A stretch of DNA of 64,000 bases. Source: an uncultured virus (IMG/VR IMGVR_UViG_3300048009_000750) (Duplodnaviria > Heunggongvirae > Uroviricota > Caudoviricetes). A program made the position numbers and the translations under genes. Position 1 is the first letter of the stretch; each line of letters begins with the position of its first letter. Shown here piece by piece: positions 1-46,838 of the stretch. Location: IMG/VR virus record IMGVR_UViG_3300048009_000750, one strand, 5' to 3'. The notes beneath the pieces were generated by a model that was not told the origin of the DNA, made no database searches, and saw nothing but the letters and a program-made list of their open reading frames with translations.

Positions 1-168
1 GAAGAGTTCCGTTCTCGGTATACGGAGCGAGCGGGTCTTGAGGGTCCATTCTTCTATGAAGGGAACCGTGTACTGTATTATGATCCACAGTGGGGTGCCT
101 ATTTAAATCCAAACACAGATACCTATCTATCATATGATGAGTATCACGAGGAGTATTCACAATGGTAA
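1..168 (+). CDS. Hypothetical early protein, 5'-truncated (...EEFRSRYTERAGLEGPFFYEGNRVLYYDPQWGAYLNP...)
   Basis: Open frame from base 1 to TAA at 166-168; same strand as the neighbouring early genes. Confidence 0.7.
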   Translation, partial: EEFRSRYTERAGLEGPFFYEGNRVLYYDPQWGAYLNPNTDTYLSYDEYHEEYSQW

Positions 169-320
169 AATTCGTTGCAATGACATTGAATTGTTTTATT
201 GTAGGAACCATAATATATCTTTATGGTGTAGAAGTTGGCAAGAATCAGCAGATTCCGGTTGACTTTCAGCAGCAGATCAACTATACTGTATATAGAGCAC
301 TTTTAGAGGGAACACAATGA
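162..320 (+). CDS. Small hypothetical protein with N-terminal hydrophobic segment (52 aa)
   Basis: GAGGAG SD upstream; ATG at 162; TGA overlaps the next ATG (ATGA 317-320). Confidence 0.55.
   Translation: MVKFVAMTLNCFIVGTIIYLYGVEVGKNQQIPVDFQQQINYTVYRALLEGTQ
259..287 (+). promoter_or_regulatory. sigma70-type early promoter
   Basis: TTGACT-17nt-TATACT. Confidence 0.75.
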
Positions 321-718
321 GTCACACATTTTTTGAAAACAATTCGAACTATCACGTAGAAGAAACACGTGAAGTGGATCAGTTCACCGTAGAGATTGCG
401 TTCGCACCAGATGACACGCAGCTGGATCTCTTGTTTGATACTGACGCTGATTACTATCCAGAGCTGATTGAGAACTTGGAGTCAGGCTTTTGGCAGCATA
501 TGATCGTTCGTGTCCAAGCCAAATACGATGGTAAGGTTATGGGTGAATCATATCTAGGCAGTTGCGTAGCAGAAGGACCTCAGGAGTGGATGTTCAATGA
601 CAGAGATCAAGTAGACGACCTTGTTGACCAAGCCGTAGACGAAGCTCGCAACGAAGCGGTTCGTATGTTAGATATCCTGAAAAAAGATTTTTTAGGGGTT
701 GACACTGTAGCAGAGTGA
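317..718 (+). CDS. Acidic hypothetical early protein
   Basis: 133-aa ORF; GAGGG at 306-310. Confidence 0.85.
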   Translation: MSHTFFENNSNYHVEETREVDQFTVEIAFAPDDTQLDLLFDTDADYYPELIENLESGFWQHMIVRVQAKYDGKVMGESYLGSCVAEGPQEWMFNDRDQVDDLVDQAVDEARNEAVRMLDILKKDFLGVDTVAE

Positions 719-727
719 TGCTATAGT
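699..727 (+). promoter_or_regulatory. sigma70-type early promoter
   Basis: TTGACA-17nt-TATAGT with extended TG. Confidence 0.85.
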
Positions 728-760
728 GTATGTATAAGTTGGCAAAGAGGGAAACAACTA

Positions 761-928
761 ATGAACGACTTATTTGAAATCGTAGAAGACTTGAAAGACA
801 TTGATACCTTTGGTAGCGATACCACAGCGTTTGAAGATATCATCACCAAGTGGGAAGCACGTTTGTCAGATGCACAAGCTGACGCAGAACGTCAATATGA
901 ATTATTTGAAATGGATGACGGAGCGTAG
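761..928 (+). CDS. Small very acidic hypothetical protein (55 aa, MNDLFEIVEDLKDIDTFGSD...)
   Basis: Own promoter; GAGGG at 747-751; ATG 761 to TAG 928. Confidence 0.75.
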   Translation: MNDLFEIVEDLKDIDTFGSDTTAFEDIITKWEARLSDAQADAERQYELFEMDDGA

Positions 929-935
929 TATAACA

Positions 936-1021
936 GCCTCCTTGGTGGAATGGTAGACACTACAGACTTAAAATCTGTTGCCTGTATAGGCGTGCCGGTT
1001 CGAGTCCGGCAGGAGGCACCA
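936..1021 (+). tRNA. tRNA-Leu (anticodon TAA)
   Basis: GCCTCCT/AGGAGGC acceptor stem; ACAGA-CTTAAAA-TCTGT anticodon arm; long variable arm; GTTCGAGTC T-loop; encoded CCA. Confidence 0.95.
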
Positions 1022-1033
1022 ACTGTTTTTGCT

Positions 1034-1111
1034 GGTCACGTAGCTCAGCTGGATTAGAGCAAGTGCCTTCTAAGCACTAGGTCGGGGGTTCGAGTCCTCC
1101 CGTGATCGCCA
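1034..1111 (+). tRNA. tRNA-Arg (anticodon TCT)
   Basis: GGTCACG/CGTGATC acceptor stem; AGTGC-CTTCTAA-GCACT anticodon arm; GTTCGAGTC T-loop; encoded CCA. Confidence 0.95.
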
Positions 1112-1126
1112 AAAGGAGTTGATAAA

Positions 1127-1291
1127 ATGGCAAGCTGTCCAAGATGTTTTAAGGAGAAAGAAATGTTCGCTACAAGATGTCCACACTGTGTGGCCGATGT
1201 ACCGATCAGCAATCAATTGAACCACAGTCTCATTACCACTATAATTGTTTGGGGCGTAATTATTATTGGATTATTATATCTTTTTGGTTGA
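1127..1291 (+). CDS. Small zinc-ribbon protein (CPRC...CPHC) with C-terminal transmembrane helix
   Basis: AGGAG SD; 54-aa ORF with two CxxC motifs and a hydrophobic tail. Confidence 0.75.
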   Translation: MASCPRCFKEKEMFATRCPHCVADVPISNQLNHSLITTIIVWGVIIIGLLYLFG

Positions 1292-1315
1292 CAATGATTA
1301 AAAAGATGCTATATT
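1288..1315 (+). promoter_or_regulatory. sigma70-type early promoter
   Basis: TTGACA-16nt-TATATT with extended TG. Confidence 0.75.
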
Positions 1316-1342
1316 AAATGTAGCAAAGGACAACAGAGGGCA

Positions 1343-2344
1343 ATGGATATGATGTTATTTGAAGAAGGCACTTTCAAGTTGAGAGGCAAAGATGTAAATG
1401 TAGCAGGGCAAACACTGCCCGTAGTCGAAGGTTATAAGGTAGGCGTTCGCGGCGGTTACGTGACTGTTGATGGTAGTGCAGTCCCCGGCTTCCCAGACAG
1501 AAAGATCAAAGTTATGGTGTCGAGTGCAGACAGTGTCAAAGATACTGGATCCGTAGCCGCCGCAGAGGCGGACAAAGAAACAGATGCAGAAGCAGTAGAA
1601 CGCATCCGTGGACGATTTAAAATGCTAGGCGAAATGACCAAAGCGGTGCGAAAAGGCGATGTACGTGCTATGATCGTATCAGGACCTCCAGGTGTTGGTA
1701 AGTCACACGGTGTAGAAGAAGTACTAGACCGATACAAAACGTTAGAACAACTAGGAGGACGCAAATCATTTGAAGTTGTCAAAGGTGCTATGTCACCTAT
1801 TGGATTATATTGTAAACTGTTCAAGATGGCAGATGCTGGTAATGTAATAGTCTTTGATGACTGTGATAGTATCTTCAACGATGAGTTGAGCTTGAATATA
1901 CTTAAAGCCGCATTGGACTCTAAGAAATCACGTAAGATCCATTGGAACACTGATTCATTCAAGTTACGCAACGAAGGTGTGCCAGATTGTTTTGACTTCA
2001 AAGCCTCAGCTATCTTTATCACCAACTTGAAGTTTGACAAAGTCAAAGGCAAGTTGCGAGAGCATTTGGATGCACTTGAGAGCCGTTGTCACTATATGGA
2101 CTTGACAATTGACTCAGAACGTGATAAAATGTTACGTATCCGTCAAGTGGTACAAGACGGTATGCTCAATGCATACAAACTCAGCGAAGAAATCAAAAAG
2201 GAGATTGTAAACTTCGTAGACGATAAAAAGAGTAGCCTAAGAGAACTATCCTTGCGCACAGTGCTCAAGGTAGCTGATCTAGCAGTAGCCTTTCCAGATG
2301 ATTGGAAGGCCTACGCAGAGAATACTGTGATGCGTCGAGCATAG
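1343..2344 (+). CDS. AAA+ family ATPase (true start may be the ATG at 1349)
   Basis: Walker A GPPGVGKS, Walker B VIVFDD, sensor-1-like FITN, arginine-finger-like ALESR. Confidence 0.9.
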   Translation: MDMMLFEEGTFKLRGKDVNVAGQTLPVVEGYKVGVRGGYVTVDGSAVPGFPDRKIKVMVSSADSVKDTGSVAAAEADKETDAEAVERIRGRFKMLGEMTKAVRKGDVRAMIVSGPPGVGKSHGVEEVLDRYKTLEQLGGRKSFEVVKGAMSPIGLYCKLFKMADAGNVIVFDDCDSIFNDELSLNILKAALDSKKSRKIHWNTDSFKLRNEGVPDCFDFKASAIFITNLKFDKVKGKLREHLDALESRCHYMDLTIDSERDKMLRIRQVVQDGMLNAYKLSEEIKKEIVNFVDDKKSSLRELSLRTVLKVADLAVAFPDDWKAYAENTVMRRA

Positions 2345-2443
2345 CCCTCATCGCTCCGCATACAGTAGGAAGCAAGCAAGCCCTCACGCTCTGCTTCCAC
2401 ATAGAAGCAGCAGGACCGCCCTCATCCTGCTGCTTCACCTTTT
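2323..2443 (+). ncRNA. Candidate triple-hairpin RNA element with GCCCUCA loops (3' end/UTR of the ATPase gene)
   Basis: Stems at 2323-2367, 2368-2398 and 2404-2436 (the last a perfect 12 bp, followed by ACCTTTT); GCCCTCA in each loop. Confidence 0.7.
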
Positions 2444-2456
2444 CTAAAATAAATGG

Positions 2457-2485
2457 TTGACACAGTGGGCATCCCGTGCTATATT
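2457..2485 (+). promoter_or_regulatory. sigma70-type early promoter
   Basis: TTGACA-17nt-TATATT with extended TG. Confidence 0.85.
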
Positions 2486-2523
2486 ATATGTATAGGGCAA
2501 CACAGTAAGAGGGAACTTACACA

Positions 2524-2721
2524 ATGGCAGACATTTGCATTTTTAACTCAGCATACCGTGACAGCGAAAAGCGTTGGATCTCAGTAGACGATGTGCGTGT
2601 AGTAACAATGAAAATGGACTACAACAACCGTCCTTATATGCTGTTCGAACACAGTGACTTTCCACTAGGCGGATTACGTGCAGACTTCAAAGACGGCAAC
2701 TGGTACTGCGATTTAGATTAA
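2524..2721 (+). CDS. Hypothetical early protein
   Basis: 65-aa ORF with own promoter; GAGGG at 2509-2513. Confidence 0.8.
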   Translation: MADICIFNSAYRDSEKRWISVDDVRVVTMKMDYNNRPYMLFEHSDFPLGGLRADFKDGNWYCDLD

Positions 2722-2728
2722 AAAGAGG

Positions 2729-2759
2729 TTGACAGTATACGGTGTATGTCGTATACTGT
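2729..2759 (+). promoter_or_regulatory. sigma70-type early promoter with embedded 10-bp inverted repeat
   Basis: TTGACA-17nt-TATACT; ACAGTATACG...CGTATACTGT. Confidence 0.85.
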
Positions 2760-2791
2760 ATATATAGGGCAAACAGACAACGAGGGTAACG

Positions 2792-3016
2792 ATGTCAACA
2801 GATTTAAAATCATCAACACAAGACGTAAGTCTTACACGCTTCTGGGCAGGCTTAGAGCAAAAGGTTCAAGTCACTACACCACGTGCAAGCAACCTAGGTC
2901 CGCTTACTACAGCAGACAAATTCTTTCAATCAGTTCAGCTTACACGTGATGAAGCTAGAACATTAGCATTAGACCTGTTTCGTTTCGCCGAAGGTCAAGA
3001 AGTGGAGGAAGTATAA
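2792..3016 (+). CDS. Hypothetical early protein
   Basis: 74-aa ORF; GAGGG at 2782-2786. Confidence 0.8.
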   Translation: MSTDLKSSTQDVSLTRFWAGLEQKVQVTTPRASNLGPLTTADKFFQSVQLTRDEARTLALDLFRFAEGQEVEEV

Positions 3017-3174
3017 TGGACTATCGTGATCGTTGTATAGAGTTGGTTGAAGATGGTATGGTTGATCCTATGATGATGTTGATCGCTGCTGTGAAGTATA
3101 TGAGTGAAGACGAAGTCAAAGAAATGCTCGAGATCAACGAACTGTTGGAGGAAGAAGATGTATGTGATTCGTGA
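3016..3174 (+). CDS. Small acidic hypothetical protein (52 aa, MDYRDRCIELVEDGMVDP...)
   Basis: GGAGG SD; TAATG coupling to the upstream gene. Confidence 0.7.
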   Translation: MDYRDRCIELVEDGMVDPMMMLIAAVKYMSEDEVKEMLEINELLEEEDVCDS

Positions 3175-3283
3175 ATACCTCACAGATCAAATCGTAGCCT
3201 ATGCGTCACGCAAGGAGGATGCGATTGCATTGATCTCACAAACCAAACCCACGGAACCCCGACTAATACTGGAGCGAATATGA
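3158..3283 (+). CDS. Small hypothetical protein (41 aa, MYVIREYLTDQIVAYASRKEDAIA...)
   Basis: GGAGG SD; ATGA overlap with the next gene. Confidence 0.6.
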   Translation: MYVIREYLTDQIVAYASRKEDAIALISQTKPTEPRLILERI

Positions 3284-3510
3284 TCAGTCAAAGACAAACC
3301 CAACAAGTAATGTATCACCTACGCTGTGCAGCAGAACGTGATCCCAATGACATTATTGCCAACGCTGCCAGCCAGCTTGCTTTTGAATTGGAAACGCCCG
3401 AACGTGTGAATCGTCTAACAGATCGGGATCGTGACTTGATACGCTATTCGGTGCGAAAAGGTTACACTCCGTTGAAATCAGGGGTTGACAAAACAGAATT
3501 CATCGTGTAG
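3280..3510 (+). CDS. Hypothetical early protein
   Basis: 76-aa ORF with GGAG SD. Confidence 0.75.
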   Translation: MISQRQTQQVMYHLRCAAERDPNDIIANAASQLAFELETPERVNRLTDRDRDLIRYSVRKGYTPLKSGVDKTEFIV

Positions 3511-3513
3511 TAT
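3485..3513 (+). promoter_or_regulatory. sigma70-type early promoter
   Basis: TTGACA-17nt-TAGTAT. Confidence 0.75.
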
Positions 3514-3548
3514 ATTAGTATAAGTTAAACAAACATAGAGGGCACACT

Positions 3549-3827
3549 ATGAAAAATCTAAAACATTACATTGATAACCGCAACCAGTGGAACAGTTTCT
3601 TTCCTAATTCAAAGACAATCACCTTTCCGTTGGATCAGAAGACAGTAGACGATCTAGCTCGTAGCCTAGACGGCGACTTGAGCCCTGAGAACCTACACTG
3701 CGATGGTGAGATTTCAGCTACACAAGCACAGAACAAATACGACTACTACGGTCGAGTGATCAAAGAGTTGGATCGCTATTGTGCAAATCAATCACTAACA
3801 ATGCCACAGGTATACGAATATTATTAA
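3549..3827 (+). CDS. Hypothetical early protein (LSPENLHCDGE motif)
   Basis: 92-aa ORF; GAGGGC at 3538-3543. Confidence 0.85.
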   Translation: MKNLKHYIDNRNQWNSFFPNSKTITFPLDQKTVDDLARSLDGDLSPENLHCDGEISATQAQNKYDYYGRVIKELDRYCANQSLTMPQVYEYY

Positions 3828-3835
3828 AAAAGAGG

Positions 3836-3866
3836 TTGACAGTATACGGCACCTGTCGTATACTGT
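3836..3866 (+). promoter_or_regulatory. sigma70-type early promoter with embedded 10-bp inverted repeat
   Basis: TTGACA-17nt-TATACT; near-copy of the promoter at 2729. Confidence 0.85.
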
Positions 3867-3902
3867 TTGTATAAGTTAAACATTGTAAGAGGGCAAAACA
3901 CA

Positions 3903-4361
3903 ATGGCATATGTATCACAGCAAGACAAAAAAGATCTAACACCAGCTATCAAGGCAGTACTCAAAAAGTATTCAATGAAAGGGAGCGTGTCAGTTCGCAA
4001 TCATTCAACATTGGTTGTCAAAGTACGTTCCGGCAGCATTGACTTTCAAGACTATGCTAATCCATACCAAGACGGATACATTGATGTGAACGTGTATCAC
4101 ATTGACTCACACTACAACGGTGTGGCACGTGCATTCCTAAACGAACTGTTGGAGGCTATGAAAGGTCCTAAGTACTTCAACAATGATGATGCGATGACAG
4201 ACTACTTCCACCGCAGCCACTACACTGACATTGAGATTGGTGCATATTCAAAACCATATGTGTTCACTGGCTGTGCTATTCCTGTAGAGCTAAGAGCAAA
4301 CCCAGCCAAGCCTGCTAACATTGTGAGCAACAACATCAACACAGATGCCATAGTATTTTAA
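3903..4361 (+). CDS. Hypothetical early protein (possibly related to polyvalent-protein-associated LPD29-like domains)
   Basis: Start reassigned to ATG 3903, after GAGGGC at 3889-3894; family resemblance from memory only. Confidence 0.8.
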   Translation: MAYVSQQDKKDLTPAIKAVLKKYSMKGSVSVRNHSTLVVKVRSGSIDFQDYANPYQDGYIDVNVYHIDSHYNGVARAFLNELLEAMKGPKYFNNDDAMTDYFHRSHYTDIEIGAYSKPYVFTGCAIPVELRANPAKPANIVSNNINTDAIVF

Positions 4362-4363
4362 GG

Positions 4364-4392
4364 TTGACAGCAAGAACGCCCTGTGTTAGTAT
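4364..4392 (+). promoter_or_regulatory. sigma70-type early promoter
   Basis: TTGACA-17nt-TAGTAT. Confidence 0.75.
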
Positions 4393-4429
4393 ACTAGCAT
4401 AGGGCAAACAAACGTAGAGGGAATACACT

Positions 4430-4711
4430 ATGACAATGATTAATACAGTACTAGATCAAATCCAACGTATGGACAACGAAGAACTCAACAGAGTAATCCA
4501 GGCAGTGAAGAGTCAGCGAACATACATTGCTAGAACAATGACACGCAAGCTGTTGGTAGGTGATACAGTCAGCTTCGAAACCAAGCGTGGCACAGTCACA
4601 GGCACAGTGCGCAAGGTCAACCCTAAGACTGTGCTGGTAAAGGACAGTGCGTCAGCTACACAGTGGAAGGTTACAGCTACACTTCTAACACCATTGAGCA
4701 TAGGAGGATAA
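4430..4711 (+). CDS. Hypothetical protein with SH3/KOW-like C-terminal domain
   Basis: LVGDTVSF...GTVRKVNPKTVLV pattern; GAGGG at 4417-4421. Confidence 0.8.
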   Translation: MTMINTVLDQIQRMDNEELNRVIQAVKSQRTYIARTMTRKLLVGDTVSFETKRGTVTGTVRKVNPKTVLVKDSASATQWKVTATLLTPLSIGG

Positions 4712-4751
4712 CGGTCGCACATAATACGCAAAGACGGCGTGTGACTAGGAG

Positions 4752-4782
4752 GAGGCAATCAGAAATGGTTGTCTCTTTTTTT
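4752..4782 (+). terminator. Rho-independent terminator closing the early region
   Basis: GAGGCAATCA-GAAA-TGGTTGTCTC followed by T7. Confidence 0.85.
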
Positions 4783-4921
4783 ATGAAAAAAAATAAATTT
4801 CTCGGGGGGTAGGCGTATAAAAAAATTTTCTTTTAAATACAAACACTTAGCTTAATGGGGTGTAGAAAAGACCACCCCAAAACTGTAAGTACTTCCCTAT
4901 AATTTTTTGCGCAGCAAATTT

Positions 4922-5083
4922 TTAACCCGCAGGACCCATTTCGGGTGGTTCATACCACGAGTCTATCCACTCAGGAGGATTTGCCATTATATCACATATG
5001 CTACAGTCTTTGACCACCATTGCAAACACCATCAGTGCTACTAGGGCAAGTATCACTACTGTAGTTCCTTTTGTATCTTCCAT
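4922..5083 (-). CDS. Small membrane protein (53 aa, MEDTKGTTVVILALVALMVF...)
   Basis: Hydrophobic helix followed by CSIC; start reassigned to ATG 5083. Confidence 0.55.
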   Translation of the reverse strand: MEDTKGTTVVILALVALMVFAMVVKDCSICDIMANPPEWIDSWYEPPEMGPAG

Positions 5084-5212
5084 AGTGTATATATTTGTAC
5101 ACCGCAAAAACCTCACCAATAACGAGTTCACGTAAGGTAAGACAAGCGAAGCGTTCTTACTTTGTGTTACGAGTTATCGAGCACTGCGAGATAGTCAACG
5201 GATATATACAGT

Positions 5213-5326
5213 ATGCACGGTACCAACGATCCACACGCTAAACGCAAGGTAATACTAATGGTAAGCATATGCGTAGGTTTACATTTTATTGTAATACCCG
5301 TGTGGATGTACTGTTTAGGATTGTAA
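5213..5326 (+). CDS. Possible small membrane peptide (37 aa)
   Basis: ATG-TAA frame encoding one hydrophobic helix. Confidence 0.4.
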   Translation: MHGTNDPHAKRKVILMVSICVGLHFIVIPVWMYCLGL

Positions 5327-5327
5327 T

Positions 5328-5402
5328 ATGGGTTCAGTGGAATTGTTAGGTTGTGCGTTTGCCGTTGCGATCATTTTAATCTTATCGGGTGTTTTTGATT
5401 AA
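5328..5402 (+). CDS. Possible small hydrophobic peptide (24 aa)
   Basis: Starts one base after the previous stop; almost entirely hydrophobic. Confidence 0.3.
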   Translation: MGSVELLGCAFAVAIILILSGVFD

Positions 5403-5410
5403 ATAACTGT

Positions 5411-5668
5411 ATGAACTCATACTTTGTACACGTACACCGAGATAATTCAGATCCATTCAATTATCCACACTTGGGTAAAGTACAGTATTTCAAAGTAGAA
5501 CTCAACTATCACGGTTTCTCAATACTAGAACATCCTGCATATCCAGGTGCACATCGTGCTAGGTTTATTGTAAGACATCATCGTGATAGTATATGGAGTT
5601 ATATACTGTTGCGCTACGACGATGTTGCTTTTAGGTATCGTAGAATCTTTCCACAAAAAATGCGCTGA
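5411..5668 (+). CDS. Hypothetical protein
   Basis: 85-aa ORF with TAAATA 5 nt upstream of the ATG. Confidence 0.6.
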   Translation: MNSYFVHVHRDNSDPFNYPHLGKVQYFKVELNYHGFSILEHPAYPGAHRARFIVRHHRDSIWSYILLRYDDVAFRYRRIFPQKMR

Positions 5669-5745
5669 ACCGCAAGCGGCTTTTGGCGGCGCTGACCTTT
5701 CAGGCTTTCGGGCTAGTGTTGAATCTTATCGCTAAATACCTCGGC

Positions 5746-5846
5746 GGCATACACTATCGGTCCCAGCGGACACTCGTCCTACGGTGAATCACATAGTGAT
5801 AGCACTACATAAATCAGCGCTGAGCGCACCTGGTGTATGCCCTTTT
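5746..5846 (+). ncRNA. Candidate structured ncRNA (four-way junction)
   Basis: GGCATACACTA/TGGTGTATGCC closing stem with three internal hairpins; TAAATA at 5733; CTTTT after the stem. Confidence 0.5.
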
Positions 5847-5876
5847 AGCTACATAGAATGACGTTAAATTCATAAC

Positions 5877-5920
5877 CGTGTCGTTAAACACCGTATGACG
5901 TGTCGTTAGTGGCCGTATGA
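5877..5920. repeat. Two tandem 22-bp repeats CGTGTCGTTA-N4-CCGTATGA
   Basis: Units at 5877-5898 and 5899-5920 differ only in the 4 central bases. Confidence 0.8.
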
Positions 5921-5971
5921 CACGGTTGTTTTAAAATTGTTTTAGTATATGTGAATAGTACTGTGTATGCT

Positions 5972-6709
5972 CTAAGTGTATTTTGCTACAAAATCTTCGT
6001 AACTTGTATCTAATACTATTTGCAATGTGTAGCGTGTTTGATCAGTGAAGTTGTTTGCGGCGTGCCATATGTCTTGATTGAATATGATCCACTCTCCTAT
6101 GGGGAACAGTTTCTTTCCGTATATGTGTCCATCTTCCCAAAGGTGTTCTGTAGGAGCATATGTTTGTCCTGGATGTGGCAACGGCAAGTACAAACAGCAC
6201 CAACGCAGCGGTGTATCTCTGTGTGGATGCATACAGCTACGGGGTGGAATGCGACTAAAGTTAGGTGGATCTCCTCTAGCTATATCACCTAAACGATGTT
6301 GTATTTGATCCAACTGTCTATACACCACACTATGATACTGCGCATCTATGTCCTGTATATACTGTATGTCAATGTATTTGCCTGGAGGTCCGTACTGTTT
6401 GTCCCAGTCGATGTGGTTATTACAGATATCCAGCATTTCCAGTATATCCTCTTTGGGCGTGGTTATCCAAGGCACAGTTTTTACACAGTGTTGTTCTATT
6501 TCTGGTATCCACTCTGATTCTCCACGGACTTCACTGCGATCCATCAGCACTTCTCTGGTGCGCATTGATTCAAACCAACTAGGTGGAAATTTGCCTACAC
6601 CTACTTGAGGTTTGCGTTCGCCCGAAAATCTACGTCGGCCCGCTGTGCCTCTCCACATTTTTTTATGACTGAGTTCTCTGTTTACATCGTTTATTTTTAG
6701 TTTACGCAT
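5972..6709 (-). CDS. 2OG-Fe(II) oxygenase (Asp/Asn beta-hydroxylase-like cupin)
   Basis: HPHRD (HxD), distal WH, and downstream R-x-T-L. Confidence 0.75.
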   Translation of the reverse strand: MRKLKINDVNRELSHKKMWRGTAGRRRFSGERKPQVGVGKFPPSWFESMRTREVLMDRSEVRGESEWIPEIEQHCVKTVPWITTPKEDILEMLDICNNHIDWDKQYGPPGKYIDIQYIQDIDAQYHSVVYRQLDQIQHRLGDIARGDPPNFSRIPPRSCMHPHRDTPLRWCCLYLPLPHPGQTYAPTEHLWEDGHIYGKKLFPIGEWIIFNQDIWHAANNFTDQTRYTLQIVLDTSYEDFVAKYT

Positions 6710-7718
6710 TGGATTTTCCTGGTATGATCACATTCTGTTTACGTAAGTAATTATCATAATTGCTGAGACGAAATTCATTTCTGTGCAATACTCTACAGTT
6801 GTTTTGTGCTTGTGTTACAGTTGGATCTCTTTGATGCAGTGTTATTATTTGATCCATTAGCACGATATCGCCAGGCTGCCAACAATGCACGTACTTGTAT
6901 TCATCTTGGAATGCACGACTGCGTATCCAAGCATCCGTATCCTCGTCACCGTTGTGTGTATGTTCGTTGAGATAATGATAATAAAATCCTCGTACACCTG
7001 CTGAGTTTTCTTGCAAGAACCACAGCCTGTATGGACCTGTGTATCCGCCGGCCTGGAATGTGGTTTTGCCAGTGCCTGATTCACCAAAACTTTCTGCAAC
7101 ACCGCTGCTCCAGTTGAGATGTGCTTCCCGCCAGTTGTAATACAATCCTTCAAGCCGGTGTAGTTCGTCATCAGTGAATGTGGCTCTACACAGTGCAGTG
7201 TTTAGGAATTCAGTGGTGGTGCCTTCACAGTGTTCCCATCCTTGCAGTCCTACTCCGTCTGCTTGATCATATCCATTTATGTTGCTGTGCCAAGCCAACC
7301 TAGCACCTGCAAATATTCCTGTGCTTTTATTGTCACGGGTTTTCTTTCCAGTCACACGTTGCACAGGATAAAGTTCTGGTGTATCTTGATACTGTTGTGG
7401 ATCAGGATATCCGTCTTTAACCAATGCCTTGTAGCGTTGCATTCCTTGCAATCCAGGATAACGTTCTTCGCCGGTGTTGTACCAATTGAAACTGTACCAG
7501 TTGTGTATGCTTTCTGTGGTAGCAATGCCACGTTTGCCCCAACCTATGTTGTGTGTGAGCCTTGCAAATTCATAACTGCTGGGCTCTTGATTACGAAACA
7601 CCACAATCAAATGTTTCAGTAATAATTCTCGAATGTTGAGATAATCTTTGGTTTCTAATGCACGTATATCCTCTAGTATTTCAATACCAGTATGGTTTTT
7701 TAAATACTGCCATTTCAT
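6702..7718 (-). CDS. TauD/TfdA-like dioxygenase, paralog 2
   Basis: LIVVFRNQ, WHSN, WQPGDIVLMDQIITLHQR, RVLHR; start set at the ATGA overlap (7718). Confidence 0.85.
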   Translation of the reverse strand: MKWQYLKNHTGIEILEDIRALETKDYLNIRELLLKHLIVVFRNQEPSSYEFARLTHNIGWGKRGIATTESIHNWYSFNWYNTGEERYPGLQGMQRYKALVKDGYPDPQQYQDTPELYPVQRVTGKKTRDNKSTGIFAGARLAWHSNINGYDQADGVGLQGWEHCEGTTTEFLNTALCRATFTDDELHRLEGLYYNWREAHLNWSSGVAESFGESGTGKTTFQAGGYTGPYRLWFLQENSAGVRGFYYHYLNEHTHNGDEDTDAWIRSRAFQDEYKYVHCWQPGDIVLMDQIITLHQRDPTVTQAQNNCRVLHRNEFRLSNYDNYLRKQNVIIPGKSNA

Positions 7719-8743
7719 TCGCTGTCTCTTGCTACCCTGCCTGGTATAATAACATTGTTCTTTTGCATCCACATATCATAGTTGCTGAGTCTGAATTCGT
7801 ATCTATGCAATACTCTGTGTGCTAGTATTTCTGGATCGTGCTGTCCACGTTGATGCAGTGTGAGCAGTTGATCCATCAAAACAATATCACCTGGTTCCCA
7901 CCAATGCACATACAAGTATTCGTTGTTGAAATAATGATCGTATACTGTGTTCCATAGGTCGTCTACATCACCAAATAGTTTTGCACTGTTCAACGGATTA
8001 AAAAATATACCTTGAGTGCCTGCTCTGTTGGTTTGCAGTACCCAGGCACGGAATCTACCAGCACCCCAATTCATTCCTGCCTTTTGTACTATATCTATTT
8101 CGGGGCTCCATTGGTCAGGAGATATTCGATACTCACCGTATGCAGTGTGCAGTGCCTTCAGCAGTTCAGGATCCATATCCGCCCTACAACGTGCAGTGTT
8201 TAAAAATTCAGTGCTGGTGTCTACACATCCTTCCCAGCCTTGTAAACTAACACCATCTGCCATACGTATACCATTCAAGTTACTGTGCCACAGTAGTTTA
8301 CCTTTGCCAAATATACCTCCAGGTATTTCATCTTTGTCTTTTTGTCCAGTAACACGTTGTATAGGAAATCCAATAGGATCGTCTGCATAGTCTTCAGGAT
8401 CATTGTATTTCCTTCTATACCACTCAGACATTTTACCCAAGCTGCCTTGTCCTCCATTTGGATCAGGCTTGTAATATTCTACCAAGCGTTCTGCATTGCC
8501 ATTCCAAAAACAACTTTCTTGATTGCTGATGCTGCCTTCACTGGCTACACCTGTTTTACCATAACCAATATTGTGTATCAGTTTACCATATGCATAAGTA
8601 TCTTTTGGTTGATGTTTTAGAACCACAATCAGTTTTGTCATTAACCATTCACGTATTTGTGCATAATCTTCTGTGGTTAATTTTGTAATGTCTACATCTT
8701 TTACTTGCCAAGCATTACCTTGGTCTATTGGTTCTATATACAT
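7715..8743 (-). CDS. TauD/TfdA-like dioxygenase, paralog 1
   Basis: WHSN, WEPGDIVLMDQLLTLHQR, RVLHR; clearly similar to the neighbouring gene. Confidence 0.85.
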   Translation of the reverse strand: MYIEPIDQGNAWQVKDVDITKLTTEDYAQIREWLMTKLIVVLKHQPKDTYAYGKLIHNIGYGKTGVASEGSISNQESCFWNGNAERLVEYYKPDPNGGQGSLGKMSEWYRRKYNDPEDYADDPIGFPIQRVTGQKDKDEIPGGIFGKGKLLWHSNLNGIRMADGVSLQGWEGCVDTSTEFLNTARCRADMDPELLKALHTAYGEYRISPDQWSPEIDIVQKAGMNWGAGRFRAWVLQTNRAGTQGIFFNPLNSAKLFGDVDDLWNTVYDHYFNNEYLYVHWWEPGDIVLMDQLLTLHQRGQHDPEILAHRVLHRYEFRLSNYDMWMQKNNVIIPGRVARDSE

Positions 8744-8745
8744 AA

Positions 8746-9447
8746 TCAATCCTTAAATTCTAATTGCATCAATGTCTGATCTAATTTACCAAAGTTATAC
8801 AAGTGTAAGGGTTGTCCGTTTAGATCGTTAACAAATCTCAAAGTATCAAATCCGTCTGTGCTTACATATCTCACACCACTTAGATTTCCTAATGCGTATG
8901 CTACGCTATCTAACAGTCCGCATAGTTTTGCATACTTGTACAAGCCTTTGAGAGTACAATTTGTCGGAACTCCTATTCTTGTTTTTACACTCCAACTGTT
9001 AAGAAGTCTAGGGTTCAAACACAATTGAGTTATTCCTCCAGTAAAATGTTGATACTTTGACATTTCAACATTGTTTAAATTTTCGCTTTGAGGATACACT
9101 CCGCAGTACATTTCAAATCCGTAATCTTGTATTACTTCTTTTACTTCGTAAAATGTTTGATACACCTTACCTTCGTATGTGCTGCCGCCTATGATTAATA
9201 CTTTGTTAACACCTGCTTTACGCATTGCTATACAGTTTTCGTGTAGTTCGCTTTCAGATTGTAAATTACGTGCGCCAATATGAGCAACAGCTTTTGCACT
9301 GCCTGCTTGATCATTTAATGCTATTGCTGCATCTTTTACCACACTTAGATCTGTACCGGGTAAGTGTGTAACACTTACTGAACTAGCTGTATCAACAGCA
9401 TACTGACTGAGTTTTTGTTTTGGTGTTTTTTCTACGCTTATGTCCAT
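8746..9447 (-). CDS. MetF-like methylenetetrahydrofolate reductase family protein
   Basis: HIGARNL, GVNKVLIIGG, GVYP, ITQLC and KYAKLCG motifs resemble the short MetF-like flavoproteins. Confidence 0.65.
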   Translation of the reverse strand: MDISVEKTPKQKLSQYAVDTASSVSVTHLPGTDLSVVKDAAIALNDQAGSAKAVAHIGARNLQSESELHENCIAMRKAGVNKVLIIGGSTYEGKVYQTFYEVKEVIQDYGFEMYCGVYPQSENLNNVEMSKYQHFTGGITQLCLNPRLLNSWSVKTRIGVPTNCTLKGLYKYAKLCGLLDSVAYALGNLSGVRYVSTDGFDTLRFVNDLNGQPLHLYNFGKLDQTLMQLEFKD

Positions 9448-44957: not shown

Positions 44958-46838
44958 TTAATTTAAACCAGCTAACTTTAGAATATCTTGAGATTCTTTT
45001 TTGTACTTGTCTTTAATACGGCCTAATTCTTCTTCACTTGCGCCATCTCTGCCTGCTTGTGCTAGTTTAGCCATTCCGTCTTTACCGTACTTCTTTTTAC
45101 CTGTGTAGTACTGTAATCCTGATTCTTCAACATCTGTTTCTTTGTATCCCATTATTTCTGCGACCTTTGCGTCGATGCGTTCTATGAACTCCATTGCTGG
45201 TTTTATATATGCTTCTCCGTATTCTTTTTCTACCATAGTAAGTACGGCTGTTGGGCCTTTTGGAAATGTGCCTTGTTCTCTATCAAAGTAACTTAGTACA
45301 AATTCGCCTAATGGTGTTTTTTCTTTTTCGATTACAATATCATCTTCGTCTTTATCTGGGTGATCGATTTTGTCGCCTTTTTTCTTACCATTCATTTTTG
45401 CAGTTCTTACAGCGTGTGCATAGGCATTGCCTTCATTTTCGTCCATATGATTTCTAGGATCATCACACTTTTCATCATCACAATTGCACTTTGTTTCATT
45501 TATAGACTCAGCAAACTGACCCATAAGTGTGTTGAGTGCTGCTTCAAATGCAGCCTCCATACTAGGATTTGTAAGACGTTTAAAATCAGCAGCACTGTAA
45601 TTGTCTTTTGGATCAATACCTCTTGTGCTACCGCCTGGCATTCCTCCAATATCAACTGGTTCGGATGCTACTCTTGGAATCACTAATTCAGTACCAACTT
45701 GTATTAATTTTGGATTAGCAATACCATTTGCATCCACAATTTCTTCAACACCTTGTTGTACGCCACCTGGAAAATGATCGGCATACTTTTGTGCTATACT
45801 TGTAATTGTTTCGCCAGGAGATACTTTGTGATATGTATCCTGTTCCGATAAAAAGCTTTCTGGTGTAAGTGTTTCTGCTAATGTTGATTCACTTACTAAA
45901 TTGTATATGTAAGGAAATATATCTTTTAATTCTTCATTAAATTGCTTTACGGTTAATTGATCAATCCAATTTTCTGCAACATCATTTGGCACTTCTTCCA
46001 TTACCGGCACTGTATAATTTTTTACTGCTTCGGTGTAATAAGATGGCTTTTGTAAATTTGCAATTTCTTTTTTTATACTAGTCATACGCTCTTTAACATT
46101 GCCGGTATATTTAGATAAAGTTTCTGCCATTACACTACTACGATTTAAGTATTGATTAAATTTTCTTAACTTTGATAATTCTTCACTTAGTCCTGTAATA
46201 TGTTTACCAAAGTCGTCATATGCGTGTCCACCTTCACCAATATGTGTTGCTAATGCTCTAGCGCCACTCAAATGCTTAAATGGATATTTAAATTTTTCAC
46301 CATCTACTGTTTCAATAAACAAAGAACCAATTTTACTTGTTCTACTTTCACCTTCACCAATTGTACCATTGTGTTTAATAGAAAGTTTGGCACTTCCAAA
46401 TTTTTGGAAACTTGTTTTATGATTTCCATACATTTTTGATTCTGACATTGTATTATCTCCGGGACGATTTGTTGCTAAAAATTTGTAATCTCTTTTCTGT
46501 AGGTTTGAACGTGTGATATCTCTCACTTCAAATTTAAGTAATCTTCTTTTACTAAACATTCGCATATCTTTTAAGAACGTAAACCAATCATTTTTATGTT
46601 GACCATAATTTTCGTCAATCATATCTTTGTTGTATATAATAACAATTCCGTTTTCTTCGTCTAAGCTAACACTAACTTTTCCAATGGGTTTAGCCTGTGG
46701 ACCAAAATCAAAATCAAAAAATCTTGCTTCTTTTGGAACATTAGTCACATCGCCCTGATCATTGCCAATTGTCAAATTGCCAAAGCGACCTTTAACTGAA
46801 TTAAACAGTTGTTCTGCTATTAAATCTAAATTCATCAT
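44958..46838 (-). CDS. Probable head/internal virion protein with a LysM domain
   Basis: YHKVSPGETITSIAQKY...NPKLIQVGTELVIP; TAAATA upstream. Confidence 0.75.
   Translation of the reverse strand: MMNLDLIAEQLFNSVKGRFGNLTIGNDQGDVTNVPKEARFFDFDFGPQAKPIGKVSVSLDEENGIVIIYNKDMIDENYGQHKNDWFTFLKDMRMFSKRRLLKFEVRDITRSNLQKRDYKFLATNRPGDNTMSESKMYGNHKTSFQKFGSAKLSIKHNGTIGEGESRTSKIGSLFIETVDGEKFKYPFKHLSGARALATHIGEGGHAYDDFGKHITGLSEELSKLRKFNQYLNRSSVMAETLSKYTGNVKERMTSIKKEIANLQKPSYYTEAVKNYTVPVMEEVPNDVAENWIDQLTVKQFNEELKDIFPYIYNLVSESTLAETLTPESFLSEQDTYHKVSPGETITSIAQKYADHFPGGVQQGVEEIVDANGIANPKLIQVGTELVIPRVASEPVDIGGMPGGSTRGIDPKDNYSAADFKRLTNPSMEAAFEAALNTLMGQFAESINETKCNCDDEKCDDPRNHMDENEGNAYAHAVRTAKMNGKKKGDKIDHPDKDEDDIVIEKEKTPLGEFVLSYFDREQGTFPKGPTAVLTMVEKEYGEAYIKPAMEFIERIDAKVAEIMGYKETDVEESGLQYYTGKKKYGKDGMAKLAQAGRDGASEEELGRIKDKYKKESQDILKLAGLN

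Follow-up and report, generated by a model that had tools for sequence, protein, structure and literature searches.

In an uncultured jumbo myophage (IMG/VR record IMGVR_UViG_3300048009_000750), the early genes share a private ribosome-binding word, GAGGG, whose complement is displayed in the loops of three hairpins directly behind the gene for a T4 nrdC.10-like AAA+ ATPase, and an RNA bearing these hairpins probably silences the early proteins as a group. We analyzed 64,000 nucleotides of this phage (hereafter the window). Our preferred reading, to which we assign a probability of roughly 0.65 from sequence analysis, is that a multivalent antisense RNA derived from the ATPase message's 3' untranslated region (3' UTR) would occlude the ribosome-binding sites of the early regulon in trans and provide delayed negative feedback, the job done in T4 by RegB. 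Shutdown of the early phase is understood in few lytic phages; the T4 regulators RegB and RegA are proteins, and few regulatory RNAs are known from lytic phages. If the reading is true, a phage RNA that silences a whole early regulon via a private Shine-Dalgarno (SD) tag would represent a third route.

A GAGGG Tag on Promoter-First Early Genes

Positions 1-4790 of the window form a block of small plus-strand genes in which each transcript is headed by a strong sigma70 promoter. GAGGG occurs on the plus strand at 306, 747, 1336, 2509, 2782, 3538, 3889, and 4417, each time 19-35 nt downstream of a sigma70 match (10-11/12; at 259, 699, 1288, 2457, 2729, 3485, 3836, and 4364) and 5-10 nt before an ATG (for the ATPase gene, 8 nt with the ATG at 1349 and just 2 nt with that at 1343). 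All eight promoter-proximal genes thus carry the word at SD distance, as the original prediction had claimed. Because the rate of GAGGG is about 0.004 per 13-nt slot, chance is excluded for eight tagged starts out of eight. One further plus-strand copy in 1-4800, at position 40, lies within a coding frame, and the word is scarce window-wide (17 copies on both strands vs. 35.4 expected from shuffles). None of the 55 genes outside the early block is preceded by GAGGG, and 24 of them have GGAG, AGGA, or GAGG. In a related record of 275 kb (G002), the tag is found on all 15 promoter-first open reading frames (ORFs) of the early block, on 18 of the 30 ORFs in that block, and on 8 of 373 crude ORF calls elsewhere. 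GAGGG is therefore not equally common before later genes, which supports the earlier proposal of this word as the mark of a post-transcriptional class among the early messages; regulation of that class as such we infer.

The same prediction assigned GGAG or GGAGG to the genes deeper in these transcripts. The word is indeed present at all five distal starts (162, 1127, 3016, 3158, and 3280), none of which has GAGGG, yet the idea of a second, GGAG-marked regulon does not hold. Of these distal sites, four fall within the reading frame of the preceding gene and the fifth, at 1127, comes after two tRNA genes; they are thus ordinary SD sites, in other words the default.

The association extends to relatives among the IMG/VR phages, with the caveat that all tallies over loci contain sequences akin to one another. 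Of the 429 GAGGG starts in 57 related loci, 388 come first after a promoter, at a distance of 12-60 nt, compared with 42 of 187 GGAG starts. Because GAGGG is followed by C in 358 of the 429 starts, and the next base is A in 320, we take the full tag to be GAGGGC(A). Spacing from tag to start is 3-11 nt (4-8 nt in 384/429), and the leaders vary freely around the invariant tag, sharing only GAGGG(C/A). Four large records (237-275 kb, 67-77% complete) each contain 10-21 tagged promoters, with none in the reversed control, and two of these records (G002 and G005) each have two tagged promoters far off on the other strand. Those of G002 head minus-strand genes at 156534 and 167997, 50-70 kb from the early block, which are probably scattered early genes.

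All eight tagged promoter-leader units of the window are on the plus strand. The first (259-316; promoter TTGACT-17-TATACT, GAGGGA at 306) precedes a gene at 317-718 that belongs to PHROG 5644 and has no assigned function. The second (699-760; GAGGGA at 747) serves a gene at 761-928, then tRNA-Leu, tRNA-Arg, and a gene at 1127-1291, and the third (1288-1348; GAGGGC at 1336) serves the ATPase gene. Downstream of the hairpins, the unit at 2457-2523 (GAGGGA at 2509) precedes a gene at 2524-2721, and the unit at 2729-2791 (GAGGGT at 2782) precedes a gene at 2792-3016 followed by the distal GGAG genes at 3016, 3158, and 3280. Two GAGGGC units at 3485-3548 (tag at 3538) and 3836-3902 (tag at 3889) head genes at 3549-3827 and 3903-4361 (PHROG 10415), respectively. 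The last (4364-4429; GAGGGA at 4417) heads a gene at 4430-4711 for a small SH3/Tudor-like protein (DUF2642), which also has a weak Phage_ProQ_C-like match (E 0.023, below cut-off).

Three leaders start with TATAAGTT (at about 733, 3519, and 3870, the first being that of the second unit), as had been noted before. An additional AGGGC near the 5' end of the transcript, at 2494, 2766, and 4401, was likewise confirmed in position. It had been described as a mark of the leaders whose tag lacks the final C, and this holds for three of the five such leaders (306, 747, 2509, 2782, and 4417) and for none of the three GAGGGC leaders. In relatives, a 5' AGGGC is found on 19 of 55 C-less leaders vs. 11 of 333 C-bearing ones, leaders that are not independent of each other. 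From these sequences, the element may be a second docking site that offsets a weak tag. One related locus (L050) has many leaders with a 5' AGGGC alone plus an ordinary GGAG SD, and the element may also act by itself.

Complementary Loops Behind the ATPase Gene

The ATPase gene occupies 1349-2344 on the plus strand (PHROG 1250), with 1349 the probable start and 1343 the first in-frame ATG; the nrdC.10 label comes from Aeromonas phage 25 records that match it. Directly 3' of the gene, the minus strand matches GAGGG at 2345, 2381, and 2419, and on the plus strand 2322-2450 folds into three hairpins with GCCCUCA, the complement of the tag, in every loop (-51.4 kcal/mol, z = -6.37, reached by 0 of 200 shuffles). 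Hairpin 1 (2323-2367; loop 2341-2352, GCCCUCA 2344-2350) uses the 3' end of the ATPase gene as its 5' arm, and the TAG stop codon supplies the G of its loop. Hairpin 2 spans 2368-2398 (loop 2378-2387, GCCCUCA 2380-2386), and hairpin 3 spans 2404-2445 (loop 2416-2424, GCCCUCA 2418-2424). Hairpin 3 is followed by a short T tract and is a probable terminator, although our terminator scan did not list it. We consider the three-hairpin RNA at 2323-2436 very probably to be the trans-acting factor for the tagged leaders.

An Rfam scan of 2322-2450 (E <= 5) returned no family; its one match, a chance microRNA match on the other strand, scored 19 bits against a cut-off of 82. The same scan of five related loci found tRNAs only. 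One public contig spans 2318-2721; its run is only guessed to be RNA, and the contig is silent on strand, ends, and level.

Starting from 80 viral loci with this ATPase, we folded 66 distinct 3' regions. GCCCTC is present in 59 of them (160 copies), and the loops read GCCCUC(A/G). The probability of being unpaired is 0.88-0.96 over five bases of the motif vs. 0.35 for the remainder. A T-rich tract follows the array in 53 of the 59 regions (a loose pattern, scored without a control). The stems are wholly different among relatives while the loop motif is constant, although loop 1 is without the motif in several of them. Among 13 hairpins anchored on one loop variant, variable outer stem positions are paired in 98 of 117 cells, as compared to a mean of 59.6 and a maximum of 81 in 2000 shuffles, with relatedness uncontrolled. 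When G-U pairs were forbidden in folding 151 distinct hairpins, the 86 1x1 stem mismatches included 64 G-T and 4 A-C. This bias places selection for the fold on the mRNA-sense strand, and the loops are thus antisense to the tag rather than a same-sense sponge. A minus-strand, CsrB-like sponge was considered as well and is ruled out by the same 64 to 4 bias.

We also scanned viral contigs for three spaced GCCCTC copies independently of the gene. At least 120 stretches were found, of which 80 were examined; 79 are not triple-loop hairpins, and the sole triple-loop array among these 80 adjoins the same ATPase. In one related locus (L009, 2640-3065), an extra stretch (a second ORF) follows the ATPase and displaces the array by about 700 nt, and the tag is gone from the ATPase leader.

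For the ATPase protein, a part in the proposed circuit is neither shown nor needed. Its predicted fold (pLDDT 87) consists of a small beta N-domain and an AAA+ module; a fold search yielded general AAA+ matches (RuvB, RFC, and NorQ; TM about 0.4-0.5), with no specific structural relative and no function.

Tag and Loop Change Together Between Clades

To follow the pair over a greater distance, we used an enlarged set of 287 sequences, of which 265 have a complete ATPase end, 179 are distinct, and 178 could be classified. Loci with GAGGG leaders have GCCCTC loops in 55 of 56 cases and another loop class in none. Where the leaders carry GAGTGA, the loops are TCTCACTC (13/14), and where they carry GAGAGAG, the loops are CTCTCTCC (2/2). 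The 33 loci with GGAGCG leaders have TCGCTCC loops in 21 cases and no loop within 1.5 kb in 11. No tag was called in 73 loci, and 15 of these have the loop of the GAGTGA class. The tag and loop pairs of the more distant clades read GGAGTGAGA with UCUCACUC, GGAGAGAG with CUCUCUCC, and GGAGCGA with UCGCUCC. In a midpoint-rooted FastTree phylogeny, the GAGGG (support 0.92), GAGTGA (1.0), and GAGAGAG (1.0) loci each form a single clade. The GAGTGA and GAGAGAG clades have one long loop and mostly 1-2 tagged leaders, an arrangement that resembles a version of this device acting in cis.

We complemented these counts with an unbiased test, in which the commonest leader 6-mer with at least three G was taken from each of 82 loci with at least five leaders, and its complement was sought in the loops of the same locus. 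The complement was present in 40 of 82 loci, compared with 7.5% in loci with another tag. The successes were GAGGGC (31/33), AGGGCA (5/6), and GGAGAG (2/2).

Members of the GGAGCG clade (L096-L122 and L259-L286) have a small Cys-rich ORF after the ATPase, with the complementary loop further 3' or with none within 1.5 kb. Three other loci (L198-L200) have an AGGAGT leader and, right after the ATPase stop, ACTCCT plus a C run; this is a possible fifth tag-loop class that was left out of the counts.

Predicted Pairing and a Proposed Mechanism

Duplexes between the loops and the eight tagged leaders of the window, including the seven that do not belong to the ATPase, have predicted energies of -9.8 to -13.4 kcal/mol (plain duplex energies with no loop penalty). 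With a canonical anti-SD these leaders reach -6.3/-6.4. Four of the five distal leaders pair better with the anti-SD; the exception is 3280 (-7.2 with loop 3 vs. -5.6 with the anti-SD). The tags are 59-85% unpaired within their own leaders.

We propose that GAGGG(C/A) has two roles, as SD site and as a private address for the gene that comes first in each early host-sigma70 transcript, and that the 3' UTR of the ATPase transcript presents the complement GCCCUC in the loops of 2-5 hairpins (three here). The hairpin RNA would build up during early transcription, either as an mRNA tail or as a processed fragment, and pair with the tagged, A-rich, largely open leaders, blocking 30S loading. Occlusion of the 30S subunit is the simplest effect, because the paired bases are the SD itself; pairing would probably promote mRNA decay as well. 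Ordinary GGAG genes and host mRNAs would pair too weakly. Because the RNA comes from a tagged early promoter and its own message is tagged, the circuit would act as negative feedback with a delay, closing or capping the phase of early translation.

Several features favor action in trans. Five of the eight tagged leaders of the window lie downstream of the hairpins, each with its own promoter. All four large records have a single array, and some of their tagged promoters lie 50-70 kb away on the other strand. Among the 55 loci that have two loops or more, the ATPase leader has GAGGG in 39, AGGGC only in 7, and neither in 3 (6 are not assessable); these three of 49 assessable loci (L008, L009, and L051) have lost the tag on the ATPase leader and kept both the loops and other tagged leaders. 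Furthermore, the number of loops rises with the number of tagged leaders (rho 0.63, n = 21 long loci, uncorrected for kinship).

A number of observations weigh against the antisense reading. The pairing is only 5-7 bp, and five of the eight leaders of the window lack the sixth base, C. The sign of the effect does not follow from sequence data, and we infer repression. The leader and loop classes were picked after the data were seen; four of the 33 GGAGCG loci also match the GCCCTC loop, 54 of the 178 loci have neither tag nor loop, and the GGAGCG class is not monophyletic. The unbiased test was weak for GGAGCG (2/7) and nil for AGGAGC (0/18) and AAGGAG (0/7), and its same-sense control scored 11 of 82. 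The evidence from co-change thus amounts to about four evolutionary states, each largely one clade, and not to hundreds of events. A cruder strand test on whole folds favored the plus strand in 36 of 59 cases, with 186 G-U pairs on the plus strand vs. 258 on the minus strand. Finally, the hairpins were not recovered when 12 elements were aligned with MAFFT and folded with RNAalifold, and 0 of 10 predicted pairs covaried, because stem lengths are too variable.

The alternative that survives best, though we consider it unlikely, is autoregulation in cis only, in which the tail would pair solely with the ATPase leader on the same message, as in icaR, and the other tags stem from copied promoter-leader cassettes similar to the PeSLs of T4-type phages. 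The retention of GAGGG or AGGGC on 46 of the 49 assessable ATPase leaders is what this predicts, and it suits the GAGTGA and GAGAGAG clades with their single long loop. Cassette copying is visible, too, in a 70-nt promoter-leader repeat at 2720 and 3827 (79% identical), and PeSL recombination is documented (PMC2839356). However, one SD needs one loop, whereas GAGGG phages keep 2-5, with more where more leaders are tagged. Leaders that differ freely around an invariant tag also speak against this reading, as do the three loci whose loops persist without a tag on the ATPase leader.

We regard as quite unlikely that the same pairing has the opposite sign and stabilizes or promotes the tagged messages, for example by shielding their 5' ends or by handing over ribosomes from the ATPase stop to docked mRNAs. 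The stop codon lies within loop 1, the tag binds the anti-SD more weakly than do four of the five distal SDs, and a second AGGGC sits at the extreme 5' end of some leaders, all of which would fit. Yet the paired bases are the SD at SD spacing, and pairing of an SD blocks initiation in the known cases, icaR (PMC3868564) among them; moreover, the L009 array sits behind a second ORF, and the loop 1 motif is absent in several relatives.

Ranked below this, and improbable, is a phage protein (a RegB-like nuclease or a RegA-like repressor) that reads GAGGG, with the hairpins as decoy, guide, or unrelated stabilizers. T4 RegB does inactivate early mRNAs at GGAG SDs (PMC3014915), and the early block encodes small SH3/Tudor-like proteins, among them the product of the gene at 4430 with its weak Phage_ProQ_C-like match. 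A decoy, however, should carry the tag in the same sense, whereas, judging by the G-U bias, it is the complement that the transcribed strand bears, and a protein reader has no need for loop and tag to change as exact complements in each clade. A protein helper in addition to RNA pairing is possible. Lastly, a host 16S tail that reads CCCUC, or a motif that is a neutral by-product of cassette copying without regulation, is very unlikely, because GAGGG is absent before the 55 later genes, 24 of which use ordinary SD words, and because neither explains the conserved complementary loops.

Comparison With Known Systems

A close functional parallel to the antisense reading is found in the cuckoo/CcsR small RNAs of Alphaproteobacteria, which are described as 2-4 adjacent hairpins with variable stems and an invariant C-rich loop motif; CcsR1-4 come from an mRNA 3' UTR and act on mRNA by pairing (PMC4615179, PMC8034643). 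The phage array shares the adjacent hairpins, the variable stems, the repeated loop, and the 3' UTR position. In contrast to the bacterial loops, which read CCUCCUCCC, a generic anti-SD, those of the phage read GCCCUC and match a private early-leader tag. In addition, the array lies behind a phage ATPase, its loop changes with the tag by clade, and it has no Rfam match. By analogy, the phage RNA would work like the cuckoo/CcsR RNAs but is not one of them.

In icaR of Staphylococcus aureus, initiation is blocked when a C-rich 3' UTR motif pairs with the message's own SD (PMC3868564). The ATPase message is similar in that its leader (GAGGGC, 1336) is complementary to the loops of its own 3' UTR (2344-2424), as it is in 46 of 49 assessable relatives. 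It differs from the single motif and single target described for icaR in having 2-5 loops and from 8 to about 20 tagged leaders, most of them on other transcripts.

The T4 endoribonuclease RegB is reported to cut GGAG SDs and so inactivate early mRNAs, and as its own message carries the word, it is autoregulated (PMC3014915). In both cases an SD word marks early phage mRNAs, including the message of the regulator; unlike RegB, a protein nuclease that reads the common GGAG, the reader here is apparently an RNA and the word is private. The pattern of RegB targets was not found, in that GGAG is avoided by genes that come first after a promoter (42 of 187 GGAG starts hold that position). No RegB match was detected among the 17 proteins of 1-8749, the part of the genome that was searched.

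The SAS of cluster K mycobacteriophages is an extended SD-like repeat before non-structural genes, with some conserved bases that 16S rRNA cannot pair, and its authors left open whether an RNA or a protein reads it (PMC3203893). It differs in its 13-bp consensus, GGGATAGGAGCCC, in contrast to leaders that share only GAGGG(C/A), and in belonging to unrelated phages; no complementary RNA is named in that report. The PeSL cassettes of T4-type phages place strong sigma70 promoter-leader units, in repeated copies, ahead of small early ORFans; their stem-loops are terminators at each promoter, and the description consulted does not include a shared SD tag or an antisense partner (PMC2839356). By analogy, PeSL-type shuffling can explain the spread of tagged cassettes, though not the loops. 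The promoters at 2732-2759 and 3839-3866 have a self-complementary spacer (ACAGTATACG...CGTATACTGT) that spans -35 to -10 and resembles the PeSL subclass whose stem-loop lies between the two boxes (PMC2839356).

We found no description of a tag-and-loop system in the literature, in a search that covered few subscription papers. Four exact motifs are absent from six supplementary files of PMC10690425, a catalogue of structured RNAs in phages; files 1, 2, and 4, which were outside that search, may list the element unannotated.

More broadly, and with somewhat less than even confidence, we suggest that SD-embedded barcodes, evolved separately in each clade of this jumbo phage lineage, together with a multivalent 3' UTR reader RNA, could titrate a temporal class of messages without a protein regulator. 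Host and late mRNAs would be spared, new genes would join through a tagged cassette, and loops would scale with messages. The natural swaps of tag and loop between clades make the mechanism directly testable. The proposed system also offers a concrete idea of what other extended SD repeats that lack an explanation, the mycobacteriophage SAS for one, might do. The tag could also be a sequence-only marker for early genes of uncultured jumbo phages, and the pair might serve synthetic biology as a small translational switch that is potentially orthogonal.

Genomic Context and Relatives

From about 6 kb on, the window has T4-like head, tail, RecA, helicase, and primase genes (recognized from their translations), mostly on the minus strand. 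The public runs that share part of the stretch, each less than half of its words, are marine. The closest cultured relatives, all distant, are those of the PA5oct/MIJ3/Paride group (ATPase identity 48.6%), and a structural protein at 44961-46838 has its top matches in the MIJ3/PA5oct group (about 25%), followed by Asterius-like phages. Judged from these comparisons, the phage is kin to the PA5oct/Rak2-like jumbo myophages, though distantly. In the closest record (G001, 32.9 kb), neither tagged promoters nor a hairpin array was found. In PA5oct itself, the top word of 38 hand-picked post-gap starts in the terminal repeat is the ordinary CAGGAG (7/38), and ncRNA001/002 contain no complement of the top six leader words, so no such system was seen in the part examined. 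Eight nucleotides of the PA5oct ATPase leader match the hairpin after the stop of that gene (L081, about 7610-7635 and 8790-8820); the match lies in a stem and may be due to chance.

The tRNA-Leu(TAA) and tRNA-Arg(TCT) genes lie at 936-1111, within an early transcript and just 5' of the ATPase promoter, and tRNA clusters are also present in the early block of two relatives (L003 and L030). After the last early gene, a hairpin and a terminator hairpin with a T run close the block at 4712-4790. A near-copy of this pair is found at the same place in L013 (about 9290-9370), with a pattern match in only 2 of 179 distinct loci. The following region, 4790-5950, is gene-poor and has A/T runs and short repeats (a 22-nt pair at 5877/5899), and its GC skew flips from positive to negative; it could be where a long terminal repeat has its edge, or else an origin. 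In PA5oct, many early genes lie inside the 39-kb terminal repeat. Bordering the early block on the minus strand, 5972-8749 encodes two tandem TauD-family dioxygenases and an Asp/Asn beta-hydroxylase.

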